Part shown: positions 7,779 to 38,735 of the stretch, one piece after another | Layout of the letters: each line of letters begins with the position of its first letter | Position numbering within the stretch: position 1 is the first letter of the stretch | Virus record (IMG/VR): IMGVR_UViG_3300042507_004218 | Coordinates: 1 to 61,564 of that record | DNA: 61,564 nt | Reading direction: 5' to 3' (one strand) | Source: a virus | Lineage: Duplodnaviria; Caudoviricetes | Position numbers and translations under genes: made by a program | The notes under the pieces: generated by a model | Told to the model about the DNA's origin: nothing | Database searches by the model: none | Seen by the model: the letters and a program-made list of their open reading frames with translations, nothing else

Positions 7779-7836
7779 GCTTGTCTCCTGCTGCCGGAGC
7801 ATCCGGCTTTGGCCCCCTCGGTGAGGGGGTTTTTTT
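7761..7836 (+). ncRNA. Candidate ~75-nt small RNA carrying an anti-RBS segment
   Basis: TTGGTG-17bp-TATACT promoter (7726-7754), then GCTTGC-TTCG-GCAAGC hairpin, linker CATGCTTGTCTCCT, GCCGGA-GCA-TCCGGC hairpin and an intrinsic terminator. Confidence 0.55.
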
Positions 7837-7838
7837 AT
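7812..7838 (+). terminator. Rho-independent terminator
   Basis: GCCCCCTC-GGT-GAGGGGGT stem-loop followed by a T-run. Confidence 0.8.
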
Positions 7839-7844
7839 TTGTGT

Positions 7845-7964
7845 ATGTCAAGAATTTGACAATATGTGTTTGGTTTTTGTAGTAATGTCAAGGATTTGAC
7901 AAAAGTAATTTTGTTTTTGTAGTAATGTCAAAGATTTGACAAAAGCAGTGTGGTTTTTGTAATT
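7845..7964. repeat. Three AT-rich 40-bp tandem repeats, each containing a TGTCAA-N4-TTGACA palindrome
   Basis: Palindromes at 7846-7861, 7886-7901 and 7926-7941, each followed by GTTTTTGTA. Lies at the divergence point of the two genome arms. Confidence 0.9.
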
Positions 7965-8194
7965 TAATTTTGTAAAAAATGCGTAGTGTGGTTGTGGTTT
8001 CGTGTTCATATAGCGTCGCTACCTCGCTGCACAGCTTGGGGGCTCCCGGGTAGGGTGGGGTCAGCAGTAGGGGCTAGGGGAGCACGCTGAAGGGGGGTTG
8101 AGGGCATATGTGAGAGGGCCGAATCCTCTCGGCGACGCCGCACGCACTGCGGCATTTTGGTAATGGGACACGATGTCCCCATTGGAGTAGCAAC

Positions 8195-8638
8195 ATGAAC
8201 AAGCAATCCCTTTTCCGTGCTTTCGACGCCTACGCTGTGGGTTCGCAGAATCTGGTGGAAACCCTGCGCAAGGCAGCCGTCGAAGCGGGTTTCAAGACCC
8301 TCGAAGACTGCAAGCCCGTGGTGACCGAATGGGCTTCGAAGAAGTACGGTGTGCCCCTGGTCGAGTCGAAGAGCCCGCGCAACAAGGGCGAGATGGTGCT
8401 CGACCGCGCGGCAGCGAAGTACGAAGCCGCCAAGAAAGCCGCACAACGCCTGATGGACGCGCTCGGCGGTGACGCTGACGCGCAGGCAAAGCCGGCCAGC
8501 AACAAGACCGAGGGCGTCGAAGTGCCCGCGCATATCGCTGCTCTGGCAGCGAAGCTGGCAGCGGCTTGCCTGGAATACGAGCAGTCGAAGAAGATCGCCG
8601 CGCAAGCGGTGGCCGAGGCTTTCGCTGCCGCGAAGTGA
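8195..8638 (+). CDS. First early hypothetical protein (147 aa, Ala/Lys-rich)
   Basis: GGAG RBS, phage-typical codon usage, immediately after palindrome 1. Confidence 0.8.
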   Translation: MNKQSLFRAFDAYAVGSQNLVETLRKAAVEAGFKTLEDCKPVVTEWASKKYGVPLVESKSPRNKGEMVLDRAAAKYEAAKKAAQRLMDALGGDADAQAKPASNKTEGVEVPAHIAALAAKLAAACLEYEQSKKIAAQAVAEAFAAAK

Positions 8639-11237: not shown

Positions 11238-11326
11238 GCAGGCACAAGCCTGCGCCCAACCGTCGCCCCTGCGGTCCAGGGGCAAACAAGCGGGGACATG
11301 ATGTCCCCATTGAAGGAGAAGCAAGC

Positions 11327-12930: not shown

Positions 12931-13061
12931 CAACATGCAACGGGGACATGTTGTCCCCGTGTCTTTTACTATCAACAAATCCCCGCAGTGTGCTACACTG
13001 CAGCCGCGCCTCGGGTTTTCAGGGGCACATCGGGCCAAAGGCCCATTGAAGGAGAAAGCAA

Positions 13062-15027: not shown

Positions 15028-15240
15028 ATGAAACTCACACCATGGTTCCCCGGCACCGTCAAGCCGGTGCGCGTTGGCGTGTATGAAAGGCAGTACTTTC
15101 GGGAGCAGCTCGAAACCCGTTATTCCTATTGGAGCGGCTACAAATGGTCTACATGGGCGCCAACCCCGAAGGGGGCCCTGGATCTTTGGTATACGGTAGG
15201 CGCGCTCCAAGACCTCCCTTGGCGCGGAGTGCTGAAATGA
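15028..15240 (+). CDS. Trp-rich hypothetical protein
   Basis: TPWFP..VKPVRVGVYER...YSYWSG..W...WRGV. Confidence 0.7.
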   Translation: MKLTPWFPGTVKPVRVGVYERQYFREQLETRYSYWSGYKWSTWAPTPKGALDLWYTVGALQDLPWRGVLK

Positions 15241-15368
15241 CCCTCAATCCCAAAGCCTTCCTCCGGAGGTGCTTTGCCTGCAACCGCGACATGCGCGACC
15301 ACCCGGGCAGCAGTATGCGGCGGGGGATTTGGAGATGTGCGAAATGCACGAAGAAAGGAACCCAATGA
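15237..15368 (+). CDS. Small zinc-ribbon protein
   Basis: CFAC...CAKC, ATGA overlaps on both sides. Confidence 0.55.
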   Translation: MTLNPKAFLRRCFACNRDMRDHPGSSMRRGIWRCAKCTKKGTQ

Positions 15369-15850
15369 CTACGATCACCATTGACCGCGCCGTCGTTGAG
15401 CAGGCGCTGGAGGCGTTGGAGTACGCGCAGCAAGATCGCGAATGCCCAAGCACAACCCGTCAGGCAATCGCCGCCCTCCGCGCCGCCCTGGCGCAGGAGC
15501 AGGACGAGCCAACTGGTAAGCAACCCTTACAGGTTGAGTCGGTGGCAACAACTCAACAACCCGCTGGCGAAACGCCCCCGTCCGACTATCGGCGCGGCTA
15601 TTGGGACGGATTCAACATCGGCAAACGCGAGGGGCGCATTGAGGCAGAAGACGCCTTGGCGCAGCAGGATGAGCCGGAAACCTGCACTTGGTATCAAGAC
15701 GGCGACAGCGACTCAGGCGTTTACGCCACCTCATGTCGGCACTACTTCAACCTTGAAGATGGTACGCCAGAGGACAACAAGATGCAGTGGTGCTGCTACT
15801 GCGGCAAGAAGCTGGTGCAGGAACTGATTACGGAGGGCGACGATGAGTGA
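15365..15850 (+). CDS. Modular hypothetical protein (repeat-jointed array, member 1)
   Basis: QALEALE / LRAALAQ / QQDEP motifs; C-terminal Cys-rich module (CCYCGKK). Confidence 0.7.
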   Translation: MTTITIDRAVVEQALEALEYAQQDRECPSTTRQAIAALRAALAQEQDEPTGKQPLQVESVATTQQPAGETPPSDYRRGYWDGFNIGKREGRIEAEDALAQQDEPETCTWYQDGDSDSGVYATSCRHYFNLEDGTPEDNKMQWCCYCGKKLVQELITEGDDE

Positions 15851-16127
15851 CCTACGAACCGCCGCCCAGCAGGCGCTGGAGGCGTTGGATGAGGCCGACA
15901 CGTTTCACCGCAACCTGTCAGATCAGCGCGCGCGCAGGCTTGCCGCAATGGCCGCCCTCCGCACCGCCCTGGCGCAGCAGGATGAGCCGACACTCACCAT
16001 CGAGCGCCTGCGCGATGCGCTCGTGGCGTCTCGCATCATCCCGCCCGCAGCGGTCGAAGACCCGGACGAATACGACGATGGAGTGACTCTGCATCGCATC
16101 GAAGCACTGCACAGGAGGATCGCATGA
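15843..16127 (+). CDS. Modular hypothetical protein (array member 2)
   Basis: MSDLRTAAQQALEALD...LRTALAQQDEP. Confidence 0.7.
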   Translation: MSDLRTAAQQALEALDEADTFHRNLSDQRARRLAAMAALRTALAQQDEPTLTIERLRDALVASRIIPPAAVEDPDEYDDGVTLHRIEALHRRIA

Positions 16128-17074
16128 ATGACCTACGAACCGCCGCCCAGCAGGCGCTGGACAGCATCAACGAACTGTTTGCCGCCGAACAGTCAGAAGG
16201 CGGAGAACGTGGCGGACATATCCGCACACCGGCCACGCGAGAGCATTTGGTGCGTGTAGCTCAGGCTCGCAAGGCTTTGCATGAAAGCTGCGGCGCCCTC
16301 CGCGCCGCCTTGGCGCAGCGGGCCGAGCTGGTGGAGCCGGTGGAGCCGGTGGATGTGGGGCTGCTTGAGTACCGAGGCAACAGCGTGGCTTTCATCCATC
16401 AAAAAATGACGGCATATCGAACCGGGATTGATGTCGCGTGGGATGCCTTCAGAGCAAAGGGACTGCATCCTGACGGCAAAACGTCATTGGCCGACATGAT
16501 CGCAAAGTACACCGCCCCACCGCAGCAGGCCGAGCCGGCGCAGGGGCCAGAAGGTATGGTTGAGTTCCTGGCCGATCTGCAACGCAGTCGGACGAAGTAC
16601 CCGAAGAACAGGCGCATGTTCGACGGCCTGATGGGCGAGATTGATGAGTTGCGCCGCGCCTACGCTGGCGATGGCGACATTCGTGCCGAAGCATTCGACG
16701 TTGCCGTGTGTGCTTTCCGCATTGCGACCGAAGGTGACGCAGGCGGTAACGCCCGGTTGGAGCAGGCCGAGACGGATCATGAAACCCGAGCCGAACTGGC
16801 GGAGCAGCAGGTTGTGCAACTTGCCGAGGAGCGCGATCACTACCGTAACCTGTGGCAGAAGGCGCAGCAGGATGAGCCGCAACCCATGCACCCTGAACTA
16901 CGAAAGATGTGGGAGGACCACTTCGACAAGTGTTTCAGGGCTATCCCTGTGCCGGAGCAGGCCGAGCCGGTGCAAATGCACCCGTCTCAATTTGCAGAAA
17001 TGATCAAAGGTAAGGAGGCCATGACCGGCATCCCGGTGTACTGGGCCGAGTGGCCGAACAAGGAGGAATCATGA
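16124..17074 (+). CDS. Modular protein with an internal MazG-like module (array member 3)
   Basis: MNDLRTAAQQAL start, several QQAEP/QQDEP joints, internal GEIDEL...AEAFDVA (ExxE...ExxD). Confidence 0.7.
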   Translation: MNDLRTAAQQALDSINELFAAEQSEGGERGGHIRTPATREHLVRVAQARKALHESCGALRAALAQRAELVEPVEPVDVGLLEYRGNSVAFIHQKMTAYRTGIDVAWDAFRAKGLHPDGKTSLADMIAKYTAPPQQAEPAQGPEGMVEFLADLQRSRTKYPKNRRMFDGLMGEIDELRRAYAGDGDIRAEAFDVAVCAFRIATEGDAGGNARLEQAETDHETRAELAEQQVVQLAEERDHYRNLWQKAQQDEPQPMHPELRKMWEDHFDKCFRAIPVPEQAEPVQMHPSQFAEMIKGKEAMTGIPVYWAEWPNKEES

Positions 17075-17562
17075 CTGATCTGAGAGCCGCTGCCCAGCAG
17101 GCGCTGGAGGCGTTGGAGAAGTACCGCAAGATGATGTTTGTGGAAGCAGGGTGTCGTTTTGGCGAAGGCGATGCAGCCATCACCAACCTCCGCGCCGCCT
17201 TGGCGCAGCAGGCCGAGCCGGTGGCGGGAAAGGTTGTAGCGTGGGGCGTGTTCGCCAACATCGACGGCGAATGGCAGTTGCAGCACCCCGTGTTCGCGGG
17301 TGACGAGCAGGGCAAGGTGAACGCTGAGTTTGAGCGCGCATCGTACAGCGGCCCGCAGCCGCTAGAAGTGCGGCCTCTCGGTGTCGTGACTGCTACGGCA
17401 CGGCAGGCCGAGCCGGCGCAGGAGCCGGTGGCGACGCTGATCGCTCAGCGCGATGCGCTGCTGGAAATGCTGAAACTGGCCCGATCCATCATCGGCCACC
17501 CGGATGACGCGCACTCACAGATGATCGACGCCGCCATCAAGGCGGTGGAGGAGGAAGCATGA
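17071..17562 (+). CDS. Modular hypothetical protein (array member 4)
   Basis: MTDLRAAAQQALEALE...LRAALAQQAEPVA...QAEPAQEPVA...DAAIKAVE; AGGAGG RBS. Confidence 0.7.
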   Translation: MTDLRAAAQQALEALEKYRKMMFVEAGCRFGEGDAAITNLRAALAQQAEPVAGKVVAWGVFANIDGEWQLQHPVFAGDEQGKVNAEFERASYSGPQPLEVRPLGVVTATARQAEPAQEPVATLIAQRDALLEMLKLARSIIGHPDDAHSQMIDAAIKAVEEEA

Positions 17563-17801
17563 AGAGACTGAGCTACTACCCGGCCCGTGCCGCAGTGAAG
17601 ATCACAAGCATCGTCCTCATCTCGCAGATCATGGTGGAGATGGGCGGGCCTGTATCGCGCAAGCCAGAGTTCTGGTGGGTCATTTATGCGTGCGCCGGAG
17701 CATTTGTCCTGTCCGCGCTCTACGCGATTGCGGTCGTCGTGCGGAATGCATGGGTGGAATACTGCGACGCCATCAAGGCGGTGGAAGGAGAAACCAAATG
17801 A
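17559..17801 (+). CDS. Hypothetical membrane protein
   Basis: Two hydrophobic segments; ends DAIKAVE like the previous gene. Confidence 0.6.
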   Translation: MKRLSYYPARAAVKITSIVLISQIMVEMGGPVSRKPEFWWVIYACAGAFVLSALYAIAVVVRNAWVEYCDAIKAVEGETK

Positions 17802-17917
17802 AACGCGAGTACGTTATTTCTATTGACTCAAGCAGGGGCTCATCAGTGTTGGGGCGCTTGGTGCGCGCGCTGCTGTTTTGGCCCCGTTGGATTCTGACCG
17901 GAAAGGCTGAGCTATGA
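17798..17917 (+). CDS. Small hypothetical protein
   Basis: AAGGAG RBS, ATGA overlaps. Confidence 0.5.
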   Translation: MKREYVISIDSSRGSSVLGRLVRALLFWPRWILTGKAEL

Positions 17918-18183
17918 ACCGAGATGACATCATCCGCATGGCGCATGAAGCAGGCTGGTCTGGTGTCTTCGTCATTGAATGGGCCAAACAGCCTGACGAG
18001 CATCCAGTGGAGAAAAGCCTGCCCGTGCCGGTGACGATGGAGCAGATTGAACGCTTCTTCCGCGCAGCCTACGCTGCCGGCGCCGCTGCCGAGCGCGAGG
18101 CGTGTGCGAAGATAGTAGAAACGCATCAATGTACGGGCTGGGGCATTCTTAGTGCCGCCATCCGCGCAAGGAGCAAGGAATGA
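17914..18183 (+). CDS. Hypothetical protein (EREACA...AIRAR family)
   Basis: MNRDDIIRMAHEAG...AEREACAK...AAIRARS. Confidence 0.7.
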   Translation: MNRDDIIRMAHEAGWSGVFVIEWAKQPDEHPVEKSLPVPVTMEQIERFFRAAYAAGAAAEREACAKIVETHQCTGWGILSAAIRARSKE

Positions 18184-18386
18184 ACCTACAAGTGGAGTTG
18201 ACCAAGTTGCTCATAGAGAGCTACGACCGTGGCGTCAAGGACGCAACGCAAGCCGCGATTGAAAGCTTCCAGGAGGCCATGCGTTTGGAGCGCGAGGCGT
18301 GTGCCCAAATTGCCGACGCCGAGGCCAGCATCGAGGGCATAGCGCAGCGCATAGCTGCCGCCATCCGCGCAAGGGGGAACACATGA
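18180..18386 (+). CDS. Hypothetical protein (EREACA...AIRAR family)
   Basis: LEREACAQIA...AAAIRARGNT. Confidence 0.65.
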   Translation: MNLQVELTKLLIESYDRGVKDATQAAIESFQEAMRLEREACAQIADAEASIEGIAQRIAAAIRARGNT

Positions 18387-18715
18387 ACGAACCGACCAGA
18401 GAACAAGTAAGAAGTCTGACAACGCAAGCAGTCCGCATGACTGTGGACGATTTTGCAATCAATGGGTTTGCCATCCCGAAGGATATTGAGGCAAACATCA
18501 CCGAAAAATACGAGTTTATCTACTACCTTGTGAAGTTTGCACAGGAGCAGGAGCGTGAACGCATCATTTCCGTAGCACAGTCTCGCCTAGACCACGAAAG
18601 AAGCGCCCTGGCGCACAACCTCTATCGGTGGCACGCCGCAAGCGAATGGCACCAAGCGAGGTGCGGCGGCATGGAGGACATGCTTGCCGCCATCCGCGCA
18701 AGGGGAAACACATGA
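18383..18715 (+). CDS. Hypothetical protein (ERERII...AIRAR family)
   Basis: QERERII...LAAIRARGNT; ATGA overlaps. Confidence 0.65.
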   Translation: MNEPTREQVRSLTTQAVRMTVDDFAINGFAIPKDIEANITEKYEFIYYLVKFAQEQERERIISVAQSRLDHERSALAHNLYRWHAASEWHQARCGGMEDMLAAIRARGNT

Positions 18716-18930
18716 ACAACACCGAAATCTTCAGCGTAGCCGAGCGCATGGCGAGCCATTACGTATCTGGCTATTGCTTCGACCACGCAGACATTGCTGC
18801 GTTTGCACGATGGGCAGCGGGGCAGGAACGCGAACGCATCATTCAGTTCCTGCAAGAAATGCAGCGGCAGGCTGGAGACGCGCACAACCACTACGGGCAC
18901 GCTGCGGTACGGATCAAGGAGGGTGTATGA
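18712..18930 (+). CDS. Hypothetical protein
   Basis: QERERII motif; ATGA overlaps. Confidence 0.6.
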   Translation: MNNTEIFSVAERMASHYVSGYCFDHADIAAFARWAAGQERERIIQFLQEMQRQAGDAHNHYGHAAVRIKEGV

Positions 18931-19572: not shown

Positions 19573-19799
19573 AATGCCCCCACTGCACCCGTGACGGCAA
19601 GAGCCAAGTGCTGGAGAGCCGCCCCGCTGACGGGCAGATCTGGCGCAGGCGCCTGTGTAAACTGTGCCTGAAGACTTTCGTCTCCTGCGAAACCGCTGAA
19701 CCCGGCATGACCATGCCTACGCAGACGCAGTCGCGGCACAGGCTCAAGGATCGCACCCCCAAACCCGAAGACCGCAACCTCAACTGGAGCAAGAAATGA
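19569..19799 (+). CDS. NrdR-like zinc-ribbon protein (no ATP cone)
   Basis: MKCPHC...SQVLESR...IWRRRLCKLCLKTFVSCE matches the NrdR N-terminal ribbon. Confidence 0.7.
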   Translation: MKCPHCTRDGKSQVLESRPADGQIWRRRLCKLCLKTFVSCETAEPGMTMPTQTQSRHRLKDRTPKPEDRNLNWSKK

Positions 19800-19966
19800 A
19801 CCCCCTCGCTCAAGAACTCAACGCCACGACGCGCACGCTGTCCGCACCCTGGCCGTTTCCTGTTAGCATCACGGCCACCATGACCTACGCCAACAAGCAA
19901 CCGCCTACCCCGCGCCCGCCTACCAAGGCCGAGCGCCTCGACGCCCTACCTCCTGCACTGTTCTGA
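19796..19966 (+). CDS. Small Pro-rich hypothetical protein
   Basis: GGAG RBS, ATGA overlap, 56 aa (APWPFP...PPALF). Confidence 0.55.
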   Translation: MNPLAQELNATTRTLSAPWPFPVSITATMTYANKQPPTPRPPTKAERLDALPPALF

Positions 19967-20116
19967 CGAGCGGCGCAGTTGCTACACAGCGGTTCTAGCC
20001 TCGCAGATGTGAAGCCCCTGTGTACCGTTCGCGTCGCCGCTCGTGGTGAACGAACGTGAACGGACCTCCTTAACCTAGAACTCGCGGGAGGCTAGGAATC
20101 TGCGTTCCCTCCCGCA
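19966..20116 (+). ncRNA. Candidate multi-pseudoknot structured RNA
   Basis: At least five complementary segment pairs in a 150-nt intergenic gap (detailed in findings). Confidence 0.6.
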
Positions 20117-20133
20117 CCTAACAAACACACACC

Positions 20134-20436
20134 ATGGCAAAGACACCAGAAAAACGAGTCAAGGATGCGTGCGTCGAAGTGCTAAAAGCTTTCAACGCGT
20201 ATTACTTCTTCCCCGTCATGGGCGGCTACGGACGCTCCGGTATCCCGGACATCATCGCTTGCTACAAGGGCTACTTCATCGCCATCGAGTGCAAGGCGGG
20301 GTTCAACACAACCACTCAACTACAGGAAAGGGAGCTAAAAGCTATCGCCGCTGCGGGCGGCATCACCCTGGTGATCCGCGAAGACACAATCGATCTGCTC
20401 CGACAGGAGCTTAGGAGAATCAAGTATGGAGAGTGA
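20134..20436 (+). CDS. VRR-NUC domain nuclease (Holliday junction resolvase-like)
   Basis: PEKRVK...GIPDII...FIAIECKA...LQERE...AGG. Confidence 0.85.
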   Translation: MAKTPEKRVKDACVEVLKAFNAYYFFPVMGGYGRSGIPDIIACYKGYFIAIECKAGFNTTTQLQERELKAIAAAGGITLVIREDTIDLLRQELRRIKYGE

Positions 20437-27149: not shown

Positions 27150-27184
27150 GTAACTGGGGGCGGCACTGCCGCCCCCTTTGTCAT

Positions 27185-30519: not shown

Positions 30520-30745
30520 GCGGGGGCAGGGCTTCTTCGTTCCCGCGCTTGACCTGGACGCCATGCGAGAAGCGGGACTGCTGGCTGCAGTCCCGCTGCG
30601 CTTGAAGGACGCCCGCGCTACCTACGGCATCAGGGACGGGCAGCTTGGGGTGCTGTTCTACCGGAAAGCCCCTGCACGGCCTGAGCGAGACGAATCTTCG
30701 CCTGACGCGCCCGGTCAAGCTCCGCCCGCTTCCGATCAGGCGTGA
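30488..30745 (+). CDS. Small protein resembling the 14157 family
   Basis: FPWDKLERGQGFFVP...GVLFYR; GAGG RBS. Confidence 0.6.
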   Translation: MPSYFPWDKLERGQGFFVPALDLDAMREAGLLAAVPLRLKDARATYGIRDGQLGVLFYRKAPARPERDESSPDAPGQAPPASDQA

Positions 30746-33700
30746 GGGTGGACGCCCGCACCTGACGTTCGAACTCGGTGATCTGCCCCATCTGCTCCCT
30801 GAACGCGCCTGCCACGGACGCCAGGGATAGCTCGTCGGCCTTCTCCTCGGCGTAGCGCTTGGCCTGCTCGGGCTTGTTTTCCGCGAGCATGCGCTTGTAG
30901 GTCTCCTGCACCTGACGGACCTTGTTCATGCGCTCGTAGACGAGGTCGATGATGCCGCTGGCGTCCTTGGGCTGGAACAGCGTGCCGACCAGCGGGAGGT
31001 CTGACGGGCGCTTGGTGGCAGGCGCAGGGCCCTCGCCAGTACCGGCAAAGGGCGCACTGAGCGCGGAGATGAGCGCCATGCCCATCTGGCCGGTGTAGCC
31101 GCTGATCAGGAACTCCAGCTTGATGGGGGAGAAACCCGTCATCTCGCCCACGGTTTTGGCAAGCTCCGTGGTGCTCTCCCGCGCACGGTACCCAGGTTCG
31201 ATGGCTTGCTCCCGAGCGGACTCGATGTCGCGCCCGGTGTAGGCCGACACCCCGAAGCCAACCTCCAACAGCGGCTTGACGGCTGCAGGGATCATGTAGG
31301 ACGAACCGCCAGGGATCATCTGCTGCACGATGTGCTTCAGCGCCTTGAGGGCTTCTTCGCCGCCTTCCTCGTTGGACAGGGTGTTCACGATGGCCTCGGG
31401 CAGCGCCTTGAAGATGTAGCCCAGTTCGAACGGGATGGGCAGGCGGATGGGCTGCTCGACGCCCGGGAGCGACACGAACCAGTTCCCGTACTTCTCCTCG
31501 GGCTTGGCGTTCTTGTACGCCTCGTCGTCCTGCATCGCCATGGCGTAGGCAATGCTCAAACCGAACAGCATCATGCCACGGGCAATCAGCTTCTTGCGCA
31601 CGCCCAGGCGCTCGTTCATCGGCATCTGGCCCGTGAACGACCGGTACAGAACGTCCAGGCCCTGAATCTGCGCGTTGAAGAAGGGGATCAGCGTGCTGGC
31701 CATGTGCAGGCTGGGCGACAGCCCGCGCCGGCTGAAGTTCATGGACTCCAGCGCCCTGTACGTGGCCTCCATCTCCGACAGGCCCTGCTTGAGGTAGTCC
31801 TCATACTGAGCGCGGCGAGTGAGCGCATCGACCTGAGCTGCCTTGCCCTCCAGATACGCGAGGCCGTTGGTAACGCTCAGCTTGCCCGCCTGCATCGCCT
31901 TGATCATGCGCGACATGTCCTCGGGCATGCCGGTGAAGACCTGACCGCCCGTGATGCCGCGCCGCTCCAGCACCCCTGCCTTGCCGATCTGCTTGAGCGC
32001 ACTCAGTATCGGCACCGTGTTGGAGCCGCTGGCAATTGCGGCTTGCGTAGAGTCCCGGAACAACATCCGTGCCATGTAAACCGGAGACGCCACGATCATG
32101 CGGCGCAGGAAGCGTGCAGGCATGCCCATGACGCGCACGAAGGCCGGGAACATCGTCGGGATGCCCGCCAGACCCTTGACCAGCAGGTCGCTGCTGATCC
32201 CCAACGCCTCAGTGTCCACCACGCCGAAGTGCTCGACGCCGTCGAGCTTGAACGTCACCGCGCCCGCCGGGGCGTTGCCGCCCTTGACCTTGCCAACAGT
32301 GGCGAGCCCGAGATCCTTGAACTCGAACATCAGGTTCTTCATGGCAAGGTTGTGCGTCGCCATGTCGATCAGCATCGAGGTGTTCTGGATGCTGCTGGTG
32401 ATGAAGTCCATGATGGGCTCGTCACCGCCCACAAGCTCCTGCAGATGCGGACTGTCCTTCAGGTTGCCGATGCGGATAGGCGTCTCCTTGCCGATCATGA
32501 GTTCGGCCACGCCGTCGCGTATGCGGTAGTAGGGGATGTAGTCGTTCTCCTGCAGCAGCTCGTTGGCTTGCTCCTTGCTCAGGGCGCCGGTCTGCACGTT
32601 GAAGTTGATCAGGTCGCGGTTGTACTGGTTGTAGATGTCGCGCACTTCGCTGAACGCGTCGCGCAGCACTGGGTTGGCGTCGATCTCGGCCTTGGCGGCT
32701 TTGAAGTCCTCCGGCGTCGGCATGGAGTCCAGGCGGCTCTCCAGGCTGTTCATGCGCTTCGTCAGCACCGTGCGCTGTTCAGCGGACAGCTTCGTGGACT
32801 TGAGTTCGTTCTCGATGCGCTTGATCTCGCCCTGCGCCCACACGCGGCCAAAGTTGAGCGTGTTGTAGCCCACGCGCTCGCCACGGATCGCAGCCATGTA
32901 GAGCGTCGCAAGCTTGTTGGACGCGTCGGCGCTGCCCGCTTCCTTGACCACATCCTTGCGCTTCAGGATGTCGAACGCCTGCTTCAGGTTGGCCCCGGGC
33001 TTGGCCTCGATGAGGTACTCCTTGGTGCCGTCAGGACGAATGATCTCCCTGCGTTCCGGCACGCCGTTCGTGATGGCCTGGGATGTGAAGTGCATCTGCT
33101 GGTCAACCATGCGCAGGTAGTACATCGCCTGCATGGCTTTCGTAGGGTCCGCGCCCGCACGCTTGAGCGCCTCCTCGGTGGGGAAGTACTTGTCGATGAA
33201 CTGCGCACGCCCGCCGATGCCAAGGAAGTTGTCGCGGATCTTGTCGATTACGCCCTTCTCTTTGCCCACCAGTTGATTGGCAACACGTGCTGCGGTGGGC
33301 AGGTTGCGGGAGAAGAGGATTTCTCCCGGCTCCGTACGGGCCTCGGCAGCGGGCGCTGCCTGCCCGCGCATCTCCATCTTCGCTGCACCGAACGCCATGT
33401 CCACGATGCCTTGCGCATCCAGCGTCTTGGGCGGCAGGCCAAACTTCTCCAGTGCGCGCCGGAAGAGCTGTGCGACGCGGCCCAGCCACTGCCCCAGCAC
33501 ACCCTTGGTCTCGGTGGGCTTGACGCCTGCGTTGACGGCCTCCTCGATGGCATAGGCCAGCAACTCGTCGTTGACCTGACCGGCCGGCGTCTCCGCTGCC
33601 TCCACACGTGCGCGTGCGGCCTGGGCCACCCGGGCCTCGGTACTGCCGTCGGTCTTTTTCTCCCAGGACTTGACGGCGTTGACCAAGGCGCTGTACTGGG

Positions 33701-36700
33701 CGTCGCCCAGCATGCTCTTCAGGCCCACGTGGGCGCCAACCTCGTGCAGCAGCACGGACAGCGCCTGCCCCTGGGGGATGTTCTCCGCGATCAGGAACGC
33801 CTTGTTGCCCGCGCTGTCCACGAAGCCGCGAGCGTCTGCCGGAATCTTGCCCTTGTACTGCGGGTTGGCCGCAACGAGCGCGTCCACCGAGTCGTAGATC
33901 TGCACCCGGCCCAGGTCCGGGAAGGTCTTCTTCAGCTCCGTGCGCACCGTTCCGGTGGTGGACGGCGTAGCGGTGGGGCCACGGGAGCGAAAGATCTCGT
34001 CAAGGGGCCGCGCATCTTCGTCTGCTGCCTCCGGCGTTTCTTCGCCTTCGACTTTTTGCGCAGTTTCCGCTTCTCGAAGCGCTTCGAGAGAAACAGTGTC
34101 TTCTTCCGCAGGCGCTTCTGCTTCCCTATCCGCTTCGTCCAGCAGCTTTCTTTCCGCAGGCGTCAAGCTTTCTCCGGCTTCGTCCTTAGCGCGTATCTCA
34201 GCAAGCCGCTCTTCTTTCTTGCGACGAGCAACCGTTTCTTTTGTACGGCTGCGATTGTCCTGCTCGATGAGGAACTGCTCCAGAGGCGTAAGCTCTTCGC
34301 CTCGCGCTTGCCGTTGACGCGCTTCGCGCAGCAAGCGTGCTTCTTCCACAGATGCTCGTTCTTCGACGCCAACTCCCTTACCTTGATAGACCGTCTTCTC
34401 TGCTTTGCGGGCTTCCGCCGCTTCGGTGCGCGTAAGGGCTTCGCCGGTAGTCTCCGGCGCTCCTGCCCGTGTGGCCGCTTCCCGAGCAGACGCTGCGCGT
34501 TCTGCCGCATCTGCCGCTGCTTTTTCAGCAGCACCGATCCTGCGCTTGGGCTGCGGTTGCGCACCTTTGAATGCACCGGAAGAAATCAAATCGGCTACTG
34601 CGTCGCGTTTGCGGACAGCAGTGGCAAGTTCCGTAATGTCTTTGTCGTAGCCTTTCCAGACGACTACTGACTGCATGACCTCGTTTCTGGCCAAGTTGTA
34701 TGCGCGTTCCGCTGCTTGCAGATCCGGTTCGATGGCGGCACGCGCCTCCGCTGACTTTGCGGCTTTGTACTTTGCCTGAAGTTCGTCGTACGGCTTGCGC
34801 TCTTTGATTTCCTTCAGCTTCATCTGCCGAACAGCATCAGTCTTATTGCGCAGCTTTTCAGCAAGCGTAGAGACACGCGACTGGAGTCCGCTGAGCACCT
34901 TTTGAGGGTCGCCCAGAAGTTGCTTCTGCTCAACAAGCGTGATACGCGGCTGTGGCTGTTCCCGAGACAAACGCTGCGCCTCAGTAAGCGCAGGGTAGAC
35001 AACTGCGCCAAGTTCTTGCGTTGGCGCAAAGCGCGTACTACCGGGAATTCCAGCACCTTCAACCGCACGACCTCCCGGTGCCGCCTGCATCCGTTCAAGC
35101 GCCTGCTGCTGCGCCACATAGCGCTTGGTTCTTTCGGTTTCCGCGAGGCCTCGCTTGACTGCTTCGCGCTCGCGTTGTGCCTTGGCCGACTGAGCAGCAG
35201 CGGCTGCGTCCGCCCGCGATACGGTAATCCCCGCCGTGCCCAAAGACTCGCGTGCCTTGCCAAGCTGTTCTTGAAGCGCTTCTATTCGCGCGTCCATGCC
35301 CGGTCTACCCGAAAGCTGCGCAATATCATTCAGCGCTTTTTCTACCGCTACGGCGCGGATCAGGTAGTCGGTTTTTGCAAGCAACGCTCCGCGTTCGGCT
35401 TCCGCAGCCTGAAGCTCCGTAGCATACACCTGCGCTACTTCAAGCAACTGGACCTTGTCTTCCGCCGACACATTGGCGGAATTTATTACGCGTGCTCTTG
35501 CACCGCGAACTTCTTCGATGCGACGAATGCGCTCATCTACATCCATCTTGTCGATGGCCGCTTGTGTAAGCGCAGGCTTAGCGTTCGGGATGTAGCTGAT
35601 CGAAAGTGGTGTCGTTATCTGAAGCGTTTCGCCTTTTTTGACAAGCGCGGTAAGCTCCTTGTCAGCTTTAACGATGGCGCGTGCGGCAACAAGGGTATCC
35701 TTGGCGGCTTGGATAGCTTTTAGTTCTTTTTCTTTGCGGGCAATTTCTTCTTTAAGCTCTTTCAGGCTTTTACGAGCTTTGTCAAACCGTGCCTGTTCAC
35801 GTTGAAGCATTGTCCTTGGACGGTCTTTTCCTTCCAAGAACTTTTTGAACGCTTCAGGGGTCTCAAGAATGAAGCCTTTTTCCGCACCTTCAGGGAACAG
35901 CGGCAGTTGGGCTTCAGTGTCAGCGCGACCTTGTTCAAACGCGGTCAAGGCAAGGCGGAGTTCTTGCGGAACGTCCAGATCAAACTCAGGCGTAGCTGCG
36001 CTAGGACCGCGCAGGGTGTCGGGGCCAATGGCGCTTTTCCCACGCCCCGGGACAGGAGCGCCAAATTCAAGCGCAGTGCCTTTTGGCACTGCTTGCCCTG
36101 CGCGTACTTCTGCTTCATATTCAGCGCCGAGGCGCTCGGCAGTTTCGGGCTTGGCGCCTTTCTTTGCTGCTCGTTCTGCGCGTTCACGCGCATACGCATA
36201 AGCGTCGCGTGCGGCATCCCCGCGAGACATTCCTTTACGCAAGTTGTCCGCAAAGCGCTGTTGTCGCGCTTCTGCCAATGTCAAATCTTCTTCTGCCGCC
36301 GTTGTGGGCTCCGCAGTAAATGCGCGTGCGTACGACGTACTCGTGATACGGCGCGGAGCACCTTCCCCGGGCTGTGTGGCTTCTACCTGCTTGAGAAGCG
36401 CGTCTACAAGCCCGTAATAGCTCTTGGGCGCAACTTGCGTTTCCGGGTAGATCGTTTTGCCGCTGGGCGTTTCAAAGCGCAACGGCTTCAGCTTCTGTTC
36501 TTCACGGCCAACTTGCGTATCTTGTGCAGGCAGTGTGCGCTCAACACGACGTAGCAGTTCGTAGATGTCTTGCGGGAGATCTTCTCGGGCAAGCGAAGAT
36601 GCCAGCCGCGTTTCAAGGTCTTTTGCAGTAAGCGGTTTCTCAACGGGAGGACGCCCTTCAACTTCTTCGCTCGGCGGCGAATACAGGCGGAACTCTCCCG

Positions 36701-38735
36701 TACCTTTAACACGGCGAGGCTCTGCGGGAGCTTTGGGTTCTTCTGCGGTATAGGTGACGTCTTCGCCCAGCAAAAGCTGTTGCGTCTGGCCAATTGCAGC
36801 AGACGGCTGCGCTTCAGGCGGCGTCGCACGCGCAATGCGCTCCAACACAGTGTCCAGATAGGGAGCTTCTTTGACGCTTTCGGGCAACCGCCGCGCAGCC
36901 ATACGCTGCAACGAAGTGATCTCCGGCCCGAGCTTGCGGCGTTCCTCAGTCTCTGCAAGACGTTCTGCTTCAGCGCGTTCCGTCTCTTCGAGCGCGGCGC
37001 GTTCTTCTGCTTCAAGCTGTGCAATAGGCGAGCCTTGCTGCTTCGCCGCTTGCTGCATGTCGTACTTCTTGAGGCCCTCTTTTACAAGGCTGAGAATGGT
37101 GGCGCTTTCACGCTTGCCAAGATCAGGAAGCTGCTCGTTGGCTTGCACCAAACGACGCGCCGTGGGAATGGAGCCCAGCAGGTACTCAGCATAAACGGGT
37201 GCTCGATCTTTTGGATCAAGCCTATCAGCATCCTGTTGGCTGTTCGCAAGCGCAATACGGCTTTGAGCATACGCAGCGGTAGGTTCAACACGCGGTCTTG
37301 TAACAACCGGCGCGGTAATATCGCCAAAGTCCGCGCTCAACTCCTCCGGTTTTTCTGCAACCAGCGCGGTGCGAGGCTGGCGCTTGACGGCTTCCTGATA
37401 CGAGTACTCCGCGTACTCCTCTGGCGTCATGCCCTCGACGCGCTGACGTTCCTTGAGCTGGGCGATCTCCGCTTTCCGAGGCGTGTACTCCGCCGTGAGC
37501 GGGCGCATCGTTTCGTTGGTGAACGCCTTCAGTTCTTCGACACGTTGCTGGTACTCGACGCGTTCATCAGGAAGCGCATCTTTACCGGGCTTGTCTTTGA
37601 CCGCTGCCTGCAATTCCTGCATGCGCTTGACGGCGGCTTGGTAGTCCGTGTCAAGCTTCAGCAGGTACTCCGGCGACTTCTTCTCCGCCTCCGCTGCCTC
37701 GCGTGCAGCCTTGCGTTGCTCGGCCTCCTGGGCTGCTGCAGCCTCCGCCTGTGCGGTGCGGGCTTCGCTGCGAGACATTGCGCGGCCTGCTGTACCAAGC
37801 GGGGCGCCCACCAGCGTGGTCTGGTAAGCCGCCTGAGCGTACTCCGTCAGCGCGTCGTCAGAGAGCACCGGCAAGCCCGCCTGGGCCCGCTCAAGGGCCT
37901 GCTGGACCACCTCCGTAGGCACCTCCGCTGCAACACCCACTGCCGCGCCTTTGGCAACCATCTTGCCCAGCGACTCACGTGCCAGCGCCTCTGCGGCCTT
38001 CTCCTTGCCCTGCTTCAGCAGCGCCTCTACCTGCGGACCGAAGAGCTTGCCGGCCACCGTGCGCCCAAGAGGGATGAACGTGCCTGCAGCCTCCAGGCCG
38101 GTCTGGAGCGCTGCCGCGCCCGCTGCCGCGCCCACATCGATGTCGATGGGCTTGCCTGCCTGTTGCTGCTCTGCCGCTTGCCGCTCGATGTTGCTGCCGA
38201 AGATGGACGGCATTGTGCTGGCCAGGAAACCCAGGCCACCGCCCACGATAGGCCCAACAGGGCCCGTCACCGGAGAAGTCAATGCACCAAGCTTGGCCCC
38301 CGCTGCTGTGGCACCCAACGACGCCCCCAGTTGAGGAAGCTGTTCAGCGATGGCCAGCGGCGCCTGCCGTGCCACCTCGAATGCCGCCGCGAGAGCACCT
38401 TGCGTGCCGTAGACCTCCTTGACCTTGTCCCAACTGACTTGGGCGGCGTAAGGTGAGGCTGCGGCCCGCTTGAGCGCAAGCTCCGCCGCTTGGTTGGCGT
38501 CACCCGTCGCTGCCTGGACGCCTGTGGTCGTGGTGCCGATCAGGCTTTCGAACCCGCGTCCAAGCGCTGCACCAAATCCCGTGCGTTGTTCAGGCGCGGT
38601 AGGCGCAGGGGCGGCTGCCCCCGCCTCTCTGCGAAGAGCAACTTCGAACGCTTGCAGTACCGTGGCGTAGTCAGGAGTACCGCGTTTGTCCTGATTTGCG
38701 CGAAGCCATTGTTCGTACGCAGCAGAGGTCGTCAT
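30630..38735 (-). CDS. Giant polyvalent virion/ejection protein (2701 aa) with a metallopeptidase-like domain and C-terminal LPD38-like domain
   Basis: LLHEVGAHVG...ELLAY zincin motif; RLPIPFELGYIFKALPE resembles LPD38; last gene of the late arm, as for podoviral internal proteins. Confidence 0.75.
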   Translation of the reverse strand: MTTSAAYEQWLRANQDKRGTPDYATVLQAFEVALRREAGAAAPAPTAPEQRTGFGAALGRGFESLIGTTTTGVQAATGDANQAAELALKRAAASPYAAQVSWDKVKEVYGTQGALAAAFEVARQAPLAIAEQLPQLGASLGATAAGAKLGALTSPVTGPVGPIVGGGLGFLASTMPSIFGSNIERQAAEQQQAGKPIDIDVGAAAGAAALQTGLEAAGTFIPLGRTVAGKLFGPQVEALLKQGKEKAAEALARESLGKMVAKGAAVGVAAEVPTEVVQQALERAQAGLPVLSDDALTEYAQAAYQTTLVGAPLGTAGRAMSRSEARTAQAEAAAAQEAEQRKAAREAAEAEKKSPEYLLKLDTDYQAAVKRMQELQAAVKDKPGKDALPDERVEYQQRVEELKAFTNETMRPLTAEYTPRKAEIAQLKERQRVEGMTPEEYAEYSYQEAVKRQPRTALVAEKPEELSADFGDITAPVVTRPRVEPTAAYAQSRIALANSQQDADRLDPKDRAPVYAEYLLGSIPTARRLVQANEQLPDLGKRESATILSLVKEGLKKYDMQQAAKQQGSPIAQLEAEERAALEETERAEAERLAETEERRKLGPEITSLQRMAARRLPESVKEAPYLDTVLERIARATPPEAQPSAAIGQTQQLLLGEDVTYTAEEPKAPAEPRRVKGTGEFRLYSPPSEEVEGRPPVEKPLTAKDLETRLASSLAREDLPQDIYELLRRVERTLPAQDTQVGREEQKLKPLRFETPSGKTIYPETQVAPKSYYGLVDALLKQVEATQPGEGAPRRITSTSYARAFTAEPTTAAEEDLTLAEARQQRFADNLRKGMSRGDAARDAYAYARERAERAAKKGAKPETAERLGAEYEAEVRAGQAVPKGTALEFGAPVPGRGKSAIGPDTLRGPSAATPEFDLDVPQELRLALTAFEQGRADTEAQLPLFPEGAEKGFILETPEAFKKFLEGKDRPRTMLQREQARFDKARKSLKELKEEIARKEKELKAIQAAKDTLVAARAIVKADKELTALVKKGETLQITTPLSISYIPNAKPALTQAAIDKMDVDERIRRIEEVRGARARVINSANVSAEDKVQLLEVAQVYATELQAAEAERGALLAKTDYLIRAVAVEKALNDIAQLSGRPGMDARIEALQEQLGKARESLGTAGITVSRADAAAAAQSAKAQREREAVKRGLAETERTKRYVAQQQALERMQAAPGGRAVEGAGIPGSTRFAPTQELGAVVYPALTEAQRLSREQPQPRITLVEQKQLLGDPQKVLSGLQSRVSTLAEKLRNKTDAVRQMKLKEIKERKPYDELQAKYKAAKSAEARAAIEPDLQAAERAYNLARNEVMQSVVVWKGYDKDITELATAVRKRDAVADLISSGAFKGAQPQPKRRIGAAEKAAADAAERAASAREAATRAGAPETTGEALTRTEAAEARKAEKTVYQGKGVGVEERASVEEARLLREARQRQARGEELTPLEQFLIEQDNRSRTKETVARRKKEERLAEIRAKDEAGESLTPAERKLLDEADREAEAPAEEDTVSLEALREAETAQKVEGEETPEAADEDARPLDEIFRSRGPTATPSTTGTVRTELKKTFPDLGRVQIYDSVDALVAANPQYKGKIPADARGFVDSAGNKAFLIAENIPQGQALSVLLHEVGAHVGLKSMLGDAQYSALVNAVKSWEKKTDGSTEARVAQAARARVEAAETPAGQVNDELLAYAIEEAVNAGVKPTETKGVLGQWLGRVAQLFRRALEKFGLPPKTLDAQGIVDMAFGAAKMEMRGQAAPAAEARTEPGEILFSRNLPTAARVANQLVGKEKGVIDKIRDNFLGIGGRAQFIDKYFPTEEALKRAGADPTKAMQAMYYLRMVDQQMHFTSQAITNGVPERREIIRPDGTKEYLIEAKPGANLKQAFDILKRKDVVKEAGSADASNKLATLYMAAIRGERVGYNTLNFGRVWAQGEIKRIENELKSTKLSAEQRTVLTKRMNSLESRLDSMPTPEDFKAAKAEIDANPVLRDAFSEVRDIYNQYNRDLINFNVQTGALSKEQANELLQENDYIPYYRIRDGVAELMIGKETPIRIGNLKDSPHLQELVGGDEPIMDFITSSIQNTSMLIDMATHNLAMKNLMFEFKDLGLATVGKVKGGNAPAGAVTFKLDGVEHFGVVDTEALGISSDLLVKGLAGIPTMFPAFVRVMGMPARFLRRMIVASPVYMARMLFRDSTQAAIASGSNTVPILSALKQIGKAGVLERRGITGGQVFTGMPEDMSRMIKAMQAGKLSVTNGLAYLEGKAAQVDALTRRAQYEDYLKQGLSEMEATYRALESMNFSRRGLSPSLHMASTLIPFFNAQIQGLDVLYRSFTGQMPMNERLGVRKKLIARGMMLFGLSIAYAMAMQDDEAYKNAKPEEKYGNWFVSLPGVEQPIRLPIPFELGYIFKALPEAIVNTLSNEEGGEEALKALKHIVQQMIPGGSSYMIPAAVKPLLEVGFGVSAYTGRDIESAREQAIEPGYRARESTTELAKTVGEMTGFSPIKLEFLISGYTGQMGMALISALSAPFAGTGEGPAPATKRPSDLPLVGTLFQPKDASGIIDLVYERMNKVRQVQETYKRMLAENKPEQAKRYAEEKADELSLASVAGAFREQMGQITEFERQVRASTLTPDRKRAELDRARQAKIRLAQAVQGLSGRTAPQAARP

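Follow-up and report, generated by a model that had tools for sequence, protein, structure and literature searches.

A conserved RNA fold of two pseudoknots joined by a loop–loop helix ahead of the replication genes of a phage genome

The virus record IMGVR_UViG_3300042507_004218 was analyzed over its whole length (the window: the full record, 61,564 bases, with an estimated completeness of 97%). At positions 19966–20117 of its + strand lies an element that comparison with homologues identifies as a member of a conserved family of structured RNAs, ~150–180 nt long. A preliminary description of the window had proposed a compact multi-pseudoknot RNA at this place, and the comparative analysis confirms it, as two pseudoknots and a loop–loop helix that covary among the homologues. 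All elements of the family parse to one set of helices: P1, a P2/P3 arm, PK-A, a linker, PK-B, P4, and K–K′. The predicted fold begins with a 5′ H-type pseudoknot, in which P1 is crossed by PK-A and which bears the P2/P3 arm, and continues with a 3′ H-type pseudoknot, in which PK-B is stacked on P4. A 7-bp long-range helix, K–K′, joins the loop of P3 to loop 3 of the 3′ pseudoknot. The parts are listed here in 5′ to 3′ order, with pairing frequencies from the alignments described below.

19966–19975 (+): P1, 5′ strand (ACGAGCGGCG); 92.5% of cells paired, four pairs with double changes, 18 sequence types
19976–19982 (+): joining strand J1/2 (CAGTTGC); TTGC(A) recurs across most lineages
19983–19989 (+): P2, 5′ strand (TACACAG); 67% paired on MAFFT columns, four pairs with double changes
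19991–19995 (+): P3, 5′ strand (GGTTC); 87–93% paired, with GC/UA and CG/UG exchanges
20002–20008 (+): K (CGCAGAT), seven bases within the 15-nt P3 loop, partner of K′; 100% of cells paired, three covarying pairs, 47 of 47 elements
20011–20016 (+): P3, 3′ strand (GAAgCC, with a single bulged G); covaries with the P3 5′ strand
20018–20024 (+): P2, 3′ strand (CTGTGTA); pairs with 19983–19989
20025–20034 (+): PK-A, 5′ strand (CCGTTCGCGT), abutting the P1 3′ strand; seven pairs with double changes, 21 sequence types
20035–20044 (+): P1, 3′ strand (CGCCGCTCGT); pairs with 19966–19975
20054–20063 (+): PK-A, 3′ strand (ACGTGAACGG); crosses P1 to give the 5′ H-type pseudoknot
20064–20073 (+): linker ACCTCCTTAA; its YUCC core alone recurs among homologues
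20074–20078 (+): PK-B, 5′ strand (CCTAG); 100% paired, exchanging CG (10) for UA (8), 47 of 47 elements
20084–20091 (+): P4, 5′ strand (GCGGGAGG); 99–99.5% paired, five pairs with double changes, 11 sequence types
20092–20096 (+): PK-B, 3′ strand (CTAGG), running on directly from the P4 5′ strand; pairs with 20074–20078
20098–20104 (+): K′ (ATCTGCG) in loop 3 of the 3′ pseudoknot, partner of K; 100% paired, 47 of 47 elements
20108–20115 (+): P4, 3′ strand (CCTCCCGC); pairs with 20084–20091

The homologue set comprises 47 distinct elements, drawn from contigs of viruses and metagenomes; at 85% identity, they fall into 20 clusters. In a first, structure-blind MAFFT alignment of 18 sequences, on which 46 pairs were scored against 500 shuffles, 89.0% of the cells were paired, versus 79.9% after shuffling. 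Double changes occurred in 26 of the 46 pairs, and none of the 500 shuffles reached this number or the covariation score. Sliding the partners by one to three columns lowered pairing to 38–52%. K–K′ and PK-B were paired in every cell of this alignment, P4 in 99.2%, P3 in 93.3% (one of its pairs being CG in 11 sequences and UG in 7), P1 in the proportion listed above, and PK-A, which MAFFT did not keep fully in register, in 73.5%. A second alignment, of 26 sequences, again had K–K′ paired throughout, with three of its pairs exchanging as GC (15) for AU (11), CG (17) for UA (9), and GC (20) for CG (3) and UA (3), and it had P4 paired in 99.5% of cells. PK-B was paired in only 66% there because MAFFT had shifted the reference row by one column. 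Checked sequence by sequence, PK-B is matched in all 47 elements, as CCCAG/CTGGG in 35, CCTAG/CTAGG in 11, and TCCAG/CTGGG in one (consensus, CCYAG with CURGG).

The long-range helix is the most consistent part of the fold. A complement of K′ lies 83–114 nt upstream of it in all 47 elements; in 46 of these, the pairing is purely Watson–Crick and at the homologous site, and in the remaining one it includes a single G–U pair. K occurs in seven versions (CGCAGAT, CGCACAT, CGCATAT, CGTAGAT, CGTATAT, CACAGAT, and TGCAGAT). Among the first 33 elements, there were 18 sequence types of P1, 21 of PK-A, and 11 of P4. The spacing of the 5′ pseudoknot also recurs, with 0–2 nt between the PK-A 5′ strand and the P1 3′ strand in most elements and the PK-A 3′ strand beyond P1. 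In the window copy, the combined score of P1 and PK-A was 53, against 26.1 ± 8.6 in shuffled sequences, and none of 300 shuffles attained it. Of 14 lineage representatives, 10 scored above each of their 300 shuffles, and two more were surpassed by two and five shuffles; the score was weak in the two tandem copies (38 and 124 of 300 shuffles as high), in which bulges break the ungapped score. RNAalifold alone recovers parts of P1, P3, and P4.

The + strand of the element folds with a minimum free energy z score of −2.12 relative to shuffles (7 of 200 folding as well), and the − strand with one of −0.42 (57 of 200). We take the folding strand to be the +, or gene, strand because the sense G–U pairs would be A–C mismatches on the other. 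One could imagine a strand-specific, single-copy element next to a replication module to be a DNA signal, either a replication origin or a priming site that folds on the displaced + strand, and G–T pairs would be tolerated in folded single-stranded DNA. Yet two pseudoknots and a loop–loop helix with strict compensation are typical of RNA, the region has neither iterons nor an AT-rich stretch, and the element invariably lies in gene orientation with a stop codon before it and a start codon after it. We regard a DNA-level role as very improbable.

Several details of the preliminary description can now be refined. Its 10-bp perfect helix 19966–19975/20035–20044 (P1), its 7-bp helix 19983–19989/20018–20024 (P2), and the crossing helix 20025–20034/20054–20063 (PK-A; 10 bp, including one G–U) are all present and covary. 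The 3′ hairpin helix that it placed at 20084–20090/20109–20115 covaries as well, although its extent is better given as 8 bp, 20084–20091/20108–20115 (P4). A double kissing contact had also been suggested. One half of it, CGCAGAT (20002–20008) with ATCTGCG (20098–20104), is K–K′, which shows the strongest covariation of the element. The other half, CTAGCCTC (19995–20002) with GAGGCTAG (20088–20095), is complementary in the window, but elsewhere the third loop base is G, A, T, or C opposite an invariant partner; we reject this contact for lack of compensation and because its 3′ side is already used by P4 and PK-B. The proposed inner pairing of GGAA with TTCC fares similarly: GGAAT is invariant, and the 3′ side reads TTC, TCT, TTT, TGT, TAT, TTA, TCA, or TAC, so that changes are not compensated. 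A fifth helix, absent from that description, is CCTAG 20074–20078 with CTAGG 20092–20096 (PK-B), which turns the 3′ hairpin into an H-type pseudoknot.

The linker had been noted as a mimic of the 3′ tail of 16S rRNA. The 9-mer concerned, ACCTCCTTA (20064–20072), is present but unique to the window's copy; homologues have ACTTTCATA, ACTCCGTAA, ATCTCCCTG, and others in its place. The window contains seven matches to ACCTCCTTA with at most one mismatch, against 5.3 ± 2.1 expected, which is chance level. Pairing of the linker, as an anti-Shine–Dalgarno (SD) sequence, with the downstream SD or leader was considered and set aside, as the summed score was 363 versus 350.6 ± 11.4 and 25 of 200 shuffles scored as high.

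Outside the helices, the homologues share the invariant unpaired bases GGAAU, UAnCCUC, and AUGYGAA. P4 (7–8 bp) and PK-B (5 bp) together form a stack of 12–13 bp, which is always followed by A-C-C/T-N-A-A, an “ACCA”-like tail, and the whole bears a loose likeness to the acceptor/T arm of tRNA or to the pseudoknotted acceptor arm of the tRNA-like ends of plant viruses. ARAGORN found no tRNA or transfer-messenger RNA gene in the window. A T-loop reading of GGTTCTAGCC was discarded because those bases pair in P3 with covariation, and a hammerhead-like CTGACGA (19963–19969) is just a P1 strand, with the rest of the hammerhead core absent.

A search with the protein of the gene that follows the element in the window, a small nuclease, returned 18 loci. 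The element was found in the 260 bases upstream of this gene in ten of them (L002–L011), it lay one gene further upstream, before a DUF3310 gene, in another (L013), and it was absent from the 260 bases in the rest (L012 and L014–L019). A loop-pattern search that left the kissing bases, P4, and the PK-B 5′ strand free gave 92 stretches in viral contigs. Among these were 28 distinct rows with a flanking stem of 7–9 bp and an upstream CCYAGA; the remaining rows had stems of at most 5 bp, except for L045, with one mismatch. With a stricter pattern, metagenome contigs yielded 26 stretches, 24 of which were confirmed by a covariance model at 39 bits or more. For host or prophage copies, two pattern scans of genome contigs gave three and zero stretches, and none of the three was confirmed by the model. 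On the window, the covariance model (R1) finds a single copy at 107.4 bits (E = 9e-27), with a runner-up of 11.7 bits. Five element-carrying genomes each have a strong match at one locus, represented by two tandem copies in one of them (G007), and a weak second match was seen in G010 (16.1 bits, E = 0.004). Having one strong locus per genome rules out a repeated promoter, terminator, processing signal, or RNase III signal.

Five relatives have no match to the element, and two of these five are 97–100% complete. The polymerase, helicase, and DUF927 proteins of the window are 67–81% identical to those of element-carrying genomes (G006–G008) and 27–53% identical to those of the element-less G001 and G002, whereas in many structural proteins the window is no closer to one group than to the other. 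Judged by these identities, the element goes with a particular version of the module. The genome as a whole is mosaic, with a replication module that tracks one set of relatives and many structural genes that are as close or closer to the element-less set, whose replication module is different. Comparing three genomes with and two without the element did not single out a partner protein, as the whole early and replication block differs and the candidates are too many. We found no cultured relatives by blastn, and the best tblastn match of the polymerase among cultured phages was 31% (Rhizobium phages). Runs from 21 studies, mostly of lake or freshwater metagenomes, hold parts of the window, which suggests that the element marks a lineage of abundant lake phages.

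Two variants of the architecture were seen. In one sub-lineage (L038, L052, L057, L122, and L132), the P2/P3 arm contains an extra hairpin of ~22 nt (GACGCGGGCAACCGCGTC); the distance from K to K′ is 114 nt there, with all helices kept. In genomes of the G007 type (L005–L010, L126, and L141), two complete elements stand in tandem, the first followed by an A/C-rich tail and then by the second. The two are 74% identical and differ in P1, P2, and PK-A but have the same K/K′ pair and so could cross-pair.

This last feature touches on the possibility that the RNA is a free-standing ncRNA (noncoding RNA) acting in trans or that K and K′ pair between molecules, forming dimers or rings. The covariation of K–K′ fits pairing in cis and in trans alike, and kissing-loop homo-oligomers of natural RNAs are documented in the part of PMC12286853 that treats them. 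The phage-associated phi29 pRNA, ROOL, and GOLLD resemble the element in that their complementary loops covary; the partners in their case are loops of separate molecules, pRNA is expressed from a promoter of its own at a genome end, and no Rfam model matches the element. The shared K of the tandem copies is explained by ancestry, since single-copy relatives (L002, L130, and L135) have that K too. Moreover, the element has no promoter or terminator of its own and always lies in gene orientation, 11–32 nt before a start codon. Action in trans or self-assembly thus seems improbable to us.

The element has no counterpart among the families tested. Rfam 15 gave no match for the whole window at gathering scores, nor for 19900–20200 at E ≤ 10 with permissive filters, where riboswitch, ribozyme, pRNA, xrRNA, IRES, and tRNA-like models were included (xrRNA, exonuclease-resistant RNA; IRES, internal ribosome entry site); in this respect, the suggestion of the preliminary description that the RNA is undescribed is supported. 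Full-text literature searches found no description of such a motif. The closest collection is that of Fremin et al. 2023 (PMC10690425), whose IMG/VR candidates are, in the part of the paper that describes them, covarying intergenic motifs 5′ of phage genes from the same source collection. The portion of its main text considered here has no motif before nuclease, DUF3310, or polymerase genes, although the supplementary list of 10,006 motifs may include the element. On sequence grounds, then, the element is a new RNA family within the structured cis-encoded RNAs of phages, with a fold unmatched by anything that was compared with it.

Partial likenesses can nevertheless be drawn. As described in the relevant portion of PMC8632103, the put sites of phage HK022 (with EAR and RARE as further complex antiterminator RNAs) are, like the element, cis-encoded structured RNAs ahead of the delayed-early or replication genes of a phage early operon. 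That portion gives put no expression platform, one or two sites per genome, and a fold-dependent function, of which the first two are common to the element. But put is ~65 nt long with two plain hairpins, whereas the element has ~150 nt, two pseudoknots, and a kissing loop, and there is no similarity in sequence or model between the element and put, EAR, or RARE (zero Rfam matches). The leader of T4 gene 32, in the passages of PMC10690425 that concern it, resembles the element in having an H-type pseudoknot and then an unstructured leader before a DNA-metabolism gene. There, the gene behind is always the leader-binding single-stranded DNA-binding protein; the gene behind the element varies and never encodes such a protein, and the element is far more elaborate. 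The ncRNA arrays of UG27 systems (bioRxiv 10.64898/2026.09.22.753630), as far as the pertinent part of that preprint describes them, are also phage-encoded, with ~150-nt pseudoknot-containing units that are sometimes repeated, but they adjoin the UG27 reverse transcriptase. The window's genome has no match to RVT_1 (0 of 1; as a control, the same search found matches in 3 of 14 genomes), which argues against a UG27- or retron-type template ncRNA.

Flavivirus xrRNAs and the intergenic IRESs of dicistroviruses are compact multi-pseudoknot folds of 70–190 nt whose target is a machine travelling along the RNA. They are intergenic or untranslated, as is the element, but belong to eukaryotic RNA viruses; their Rfam models do not match, and the element has a normal start codon 11–32 nt behind its fold. 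In the cobalamin riboswitch, a kissing loop links the aptamer to a 3′ hairpin, and a long-range loop–loop helix similarly couples the 5′ domain of the element to a 3′ hairpin near a gene start. The element, however, has neither an Rfam match nor a B12-box-like core, and its 3′ hairpin holds neither SD nor AUG.

In the genome, the genes of the + strand span ~8.0–30.5 kb, as a long run of small early ORFs (open reading frames) and then a replication module, and the terminase, portal, and structural genes are on the − strand. The replication module reads, in + order, 100-aa nuclease, DNA polymerase A, PD-(D/E)XK nuclease, SNF2 helicase, and DUF927 protein. The preliminary description correctly placed the element 5′ of replication genes; small early ORFs lie upstream, and nuclease, DNA polymerase, and helicase genes downstream. 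It sits in a 167-base gap, 19967–20133, between the stop of a 56-aa ORF and the nuclease start.

19796–19966 (+): small ORF of 56 aa upstream of the element, without a Pfam family; base 19966, the last of its TGA stop (19964–19966), is also the first of P1
20116–20133 (+): A/C-rich, G-free tail and leader (ACCTAACAAACACACACC); homologues begin A-C-Y-N-A-A
20134–20436 (+): first gene 3′ of the element, 100-aa PD-(D/E)XK-type nuclease; Pfam Hjc, borderline

The only Pfam match of the nuclease is Hjc (E = 1.9e-4, 21.7 bits versus a cutoff of 21.1); the name VRR-NUC, used for this gene previously, was not reproduced, and we call the product a small PD-(D/E)XK-type nuclease. Across homologues, the element always has the orientation of the genes and lies between an early-ORF stop and the first gene of the replication module. 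The upstream stop overlaps P1 or is at most 4 nt away in 17 of 30 cases with an upstream ORF found (maximum distance, 29 nt), and the next start codon follows P4 by 11–32 nt. The gene behind the element may encode the nuclease, a DUF3310 protein (alone or fused to a helix–turn–helix region), an NrdR-type Zn-ribbon protein, or a protein of unknown type. A protein-coding reading of the element itself is out, as no + reading frame spans the gap and the length differences among homologues are not multiples of three.

No promoter or terminator was predicted at the element. A σ70 promoter within it (TTGCAT-17-TAGCCT) could be drawn in one clade, but, by eye, its spacing is lost in the window and other clades, and the scan finds none; a σ54-like GG-N10-GC in the P4 loop was likewise rejected, because its GC belongs to the covarying bases of K′ and reads GT in the most frequent version. 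Further downstream, within the replication module, there is a terminator-like hairpin of nine all-GC pairs (27156–27176). In one relative without the element (L012, ~2400–2556), an intrinsic terminator (G6CTG TTCC GCAGC6 and a T-run) and a σ70-like promoter occupy the junction where the element would lie, directly before the nuclease gene. In three other element-less relatives (L014, L016, and L018), the nuclease gene directly follows a Zn-ribbon gene and has an equally A/C-rich leader.

The leader invites the thought that the element is a translation enhancer or ribosome-landing device, IRES-like or a standby site in the manner of T4 gene 32. As the preliminary description stated, 20116–20133 is A/C-rich with no SD, and it contains no G at all; the gene after the nuclease has a strong SD, the pseudoknot is immediately 5′ of the leader, and an SD-like word is missing from 19 of 32 homologue leaders. 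It is present in the other 13, however, and the upstream tandem copy is ~180 nt from any start codon. The three element-less relatives just mentioned also have SD-less nuclease leaders, which must then work without the element. We consider this function quite unlikely.

A related possibility is regulation of the first replication gene by a riboswitch-like domain or a protein operator. The 5′ domain would bind a small molecule (e.g. a nucleotide-pool signal) or a phage or host protein, and K–K′ would relay its state to the 3′ pseudoknot and thereby alter translation or stability. The complexity of the element, with its size, tertiary contacts, and invariant unpaired joining bases, would be in keeping with a riboswitch aptamer; riboswitches are known to occur in tandem, the downstream genes concern DNA and nucleotides, and a local 4-bp hairpin able to mask K offers an alternative state. 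But this hairpin has A–C mismatches in 3 of 18 sequences, and nothing like an expression platform is seen, with no terminator and no helix masking the SD or AUG; roughly half of the leaders lack an SD in the first place. Variation of the gene directly behind the element speaks against autoregulation by its product. A riboswitch or operator therefore seems unlikely, although less so than the roles in trans or in translation.

Because the SD and start codon are not hidden, no terminator follows, and the gene behind varies, we infer that the element is transcribed as part of a rightward polycistronic RNA and that its target in cis is the entire module downstream, not a single ribosome-binding site. 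The reading that we rank first, at a probability of roughly 0.3, is that the element could be an RNA-only processive antiterminator of the HK022 put/Bacillus EAR kind. What puts this reading first is where the element lies, that it has no expression platform, and that put and EAR set a precedent. Such an RNA would fold as it emerges from the polymerase, its invariant loops would dock onto the elongation complex, and the modified polymerase would then read through the ~10-kb replication module. By its site between early and replication genes, in an early operon and at the same junction in relatives, the element would take the place of nutR/putR in lambdoid phages. Its model, put, acts in cis and needs co-transcriptional folding, according to the pertinent section of PMC8632103. 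The early/replication junction may well be a transcriptional boundary, as the predicted terminator and promoter of the relative L012 and the terminator-like hairpin at 27156–27176 suggest.

A number of observations weigh against antitermination. The fold shares nothing recognizable with the two plain hairpins of put, and no Rfam model matched the element, EAR included if, as we assume, Rfam 15 holds a model of it. There is no clear intrinsic terminator directly behind the element. A conserved Rho loading site was not found there either, as the C-rich, G-poor stretch suited to Rho (C-over-G excess at or above about the 98th percentile) follows the element in only 5 of 20 lineage representatives. 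With the upstream stop codon overlapping P1 or lying within 4 nt of it in 17 of 30 cases, ribosomes that terminate there would melt P1. The 11–32 nt to the start codon suit a post-transcriptional role equally well, and relatives manage without the element. Finally, when contigs of four runs were compared with the window, those of X21, the sole recorded metatranscriptome, gave no cover in the bin 20005–20171; the other three runs are probably DNA.

Directly behind antitermination, as a possible but still doubtful explanation, we place a boundary element that marks and protects the 5′ end of the replication-module mRNA. Self-cleavage, which would make it a new ribozyme, or a cut by a host RNase would separate early from replication mRNA, and the double pseudoknot would then block 5′-end-dependent decay while the leader stays single-stranded for ribosome loading. 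Pseudoknotted folds that resist directional enzymes exist, as in flavivirus xrRNA. The element fills the gap from stop codon to leader, an expression platform would not be required for such a role, and the effects of tandem copies would be additive. The invariant unpaired GGAAU, UAnCCUC, and AUGYGAA fit a catalytic core or RNase site, and L012 begins a fresh transcript at the same junction if its predicted promoter is used. On the other hand, no ribozyme class in Rfam matches even at E ≤ 10, and, by eye, the helix order of the element (A-hairpin-B-A′-B′) differs from the HDV-like (hepatitis delta virus-like) order (A-B-hairpin-A′-hairpin-B′). A cut at the 5′ edge would also remove the upstream stop where this lies inside P1 (L062, L088, and L089, with a gap of −6). 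Moreover, simple stabilizers are plain hairpins, many per genome, and the element is single-copy and elaborate.

Elaborate RNA folds with several tertiary contacts are rare and have usually proved to be ribozymes, riboswitches, or RNAs that act on large machines. It is conceivable, at somewhat less than even odds in our estimate, that the element represents a new class of functional RNA (a ribozyme, a protein-free RNA that reprograms polymerase, or a self-assembling RNA) serving as an early/replication switch in widespread freshwater phages, with a fold, two H-type pseudoknots clasped by a kissing loop, that has not been seen before. The support for the fold is unusually clean, as the long-range helix exists in seven compensated sequence versions. 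The element sits at a defined regulatory point of the genome, and at ~150 nt it is small enough for direct biochemistry and structural work. Action on RNA polymerase would make it only the second such phage RNA, put being the first; self-cleavage would mean a new class of ribozyme.

The window has other repeated features. At 7803–8005, in the gap from which the terminase/portal block runs leftward and the early block rightward, there are three 40-bp direct repeats (7830–7961), each with the inverted repeat TGTCAAG.ATTTGACA, and a strong hairpin with a T-run (7811–7831) adjoins them. The main switch of the phage probably has its operators and promoters in this array. A second hairpin, GGGGACA-N3-TGTCCCC, occurs just 5′ of early gene starts at 8165–8195, 11293–11323, and 12940–12960, and more weakly at 15112; two of its copies are 84% alike over 31 nt, SD included. 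These hairpins may be recurring regulatory or terminator elements of the early genes. Paralogous families of small early genes fill 15270–18720, with N-terminal coding repeats at 15374, 15843, 16124, and 17071 and repeated gene junctions at 18153, 18356, and 18685. On the − strand, an 817-aa ORF (40444–42897) contains eight copies of an 87-bp (29-aa) coding repeat at 40795–41508. A 2701-aa ORF (30630–38735, −) has a C-terminal match only, to the unnamed PHROG phrog_18222 (E = 4.5e-29), and is 52–58% identical to its counterparts in G006–G008 and 28–31% identical to those in G001 and G002.

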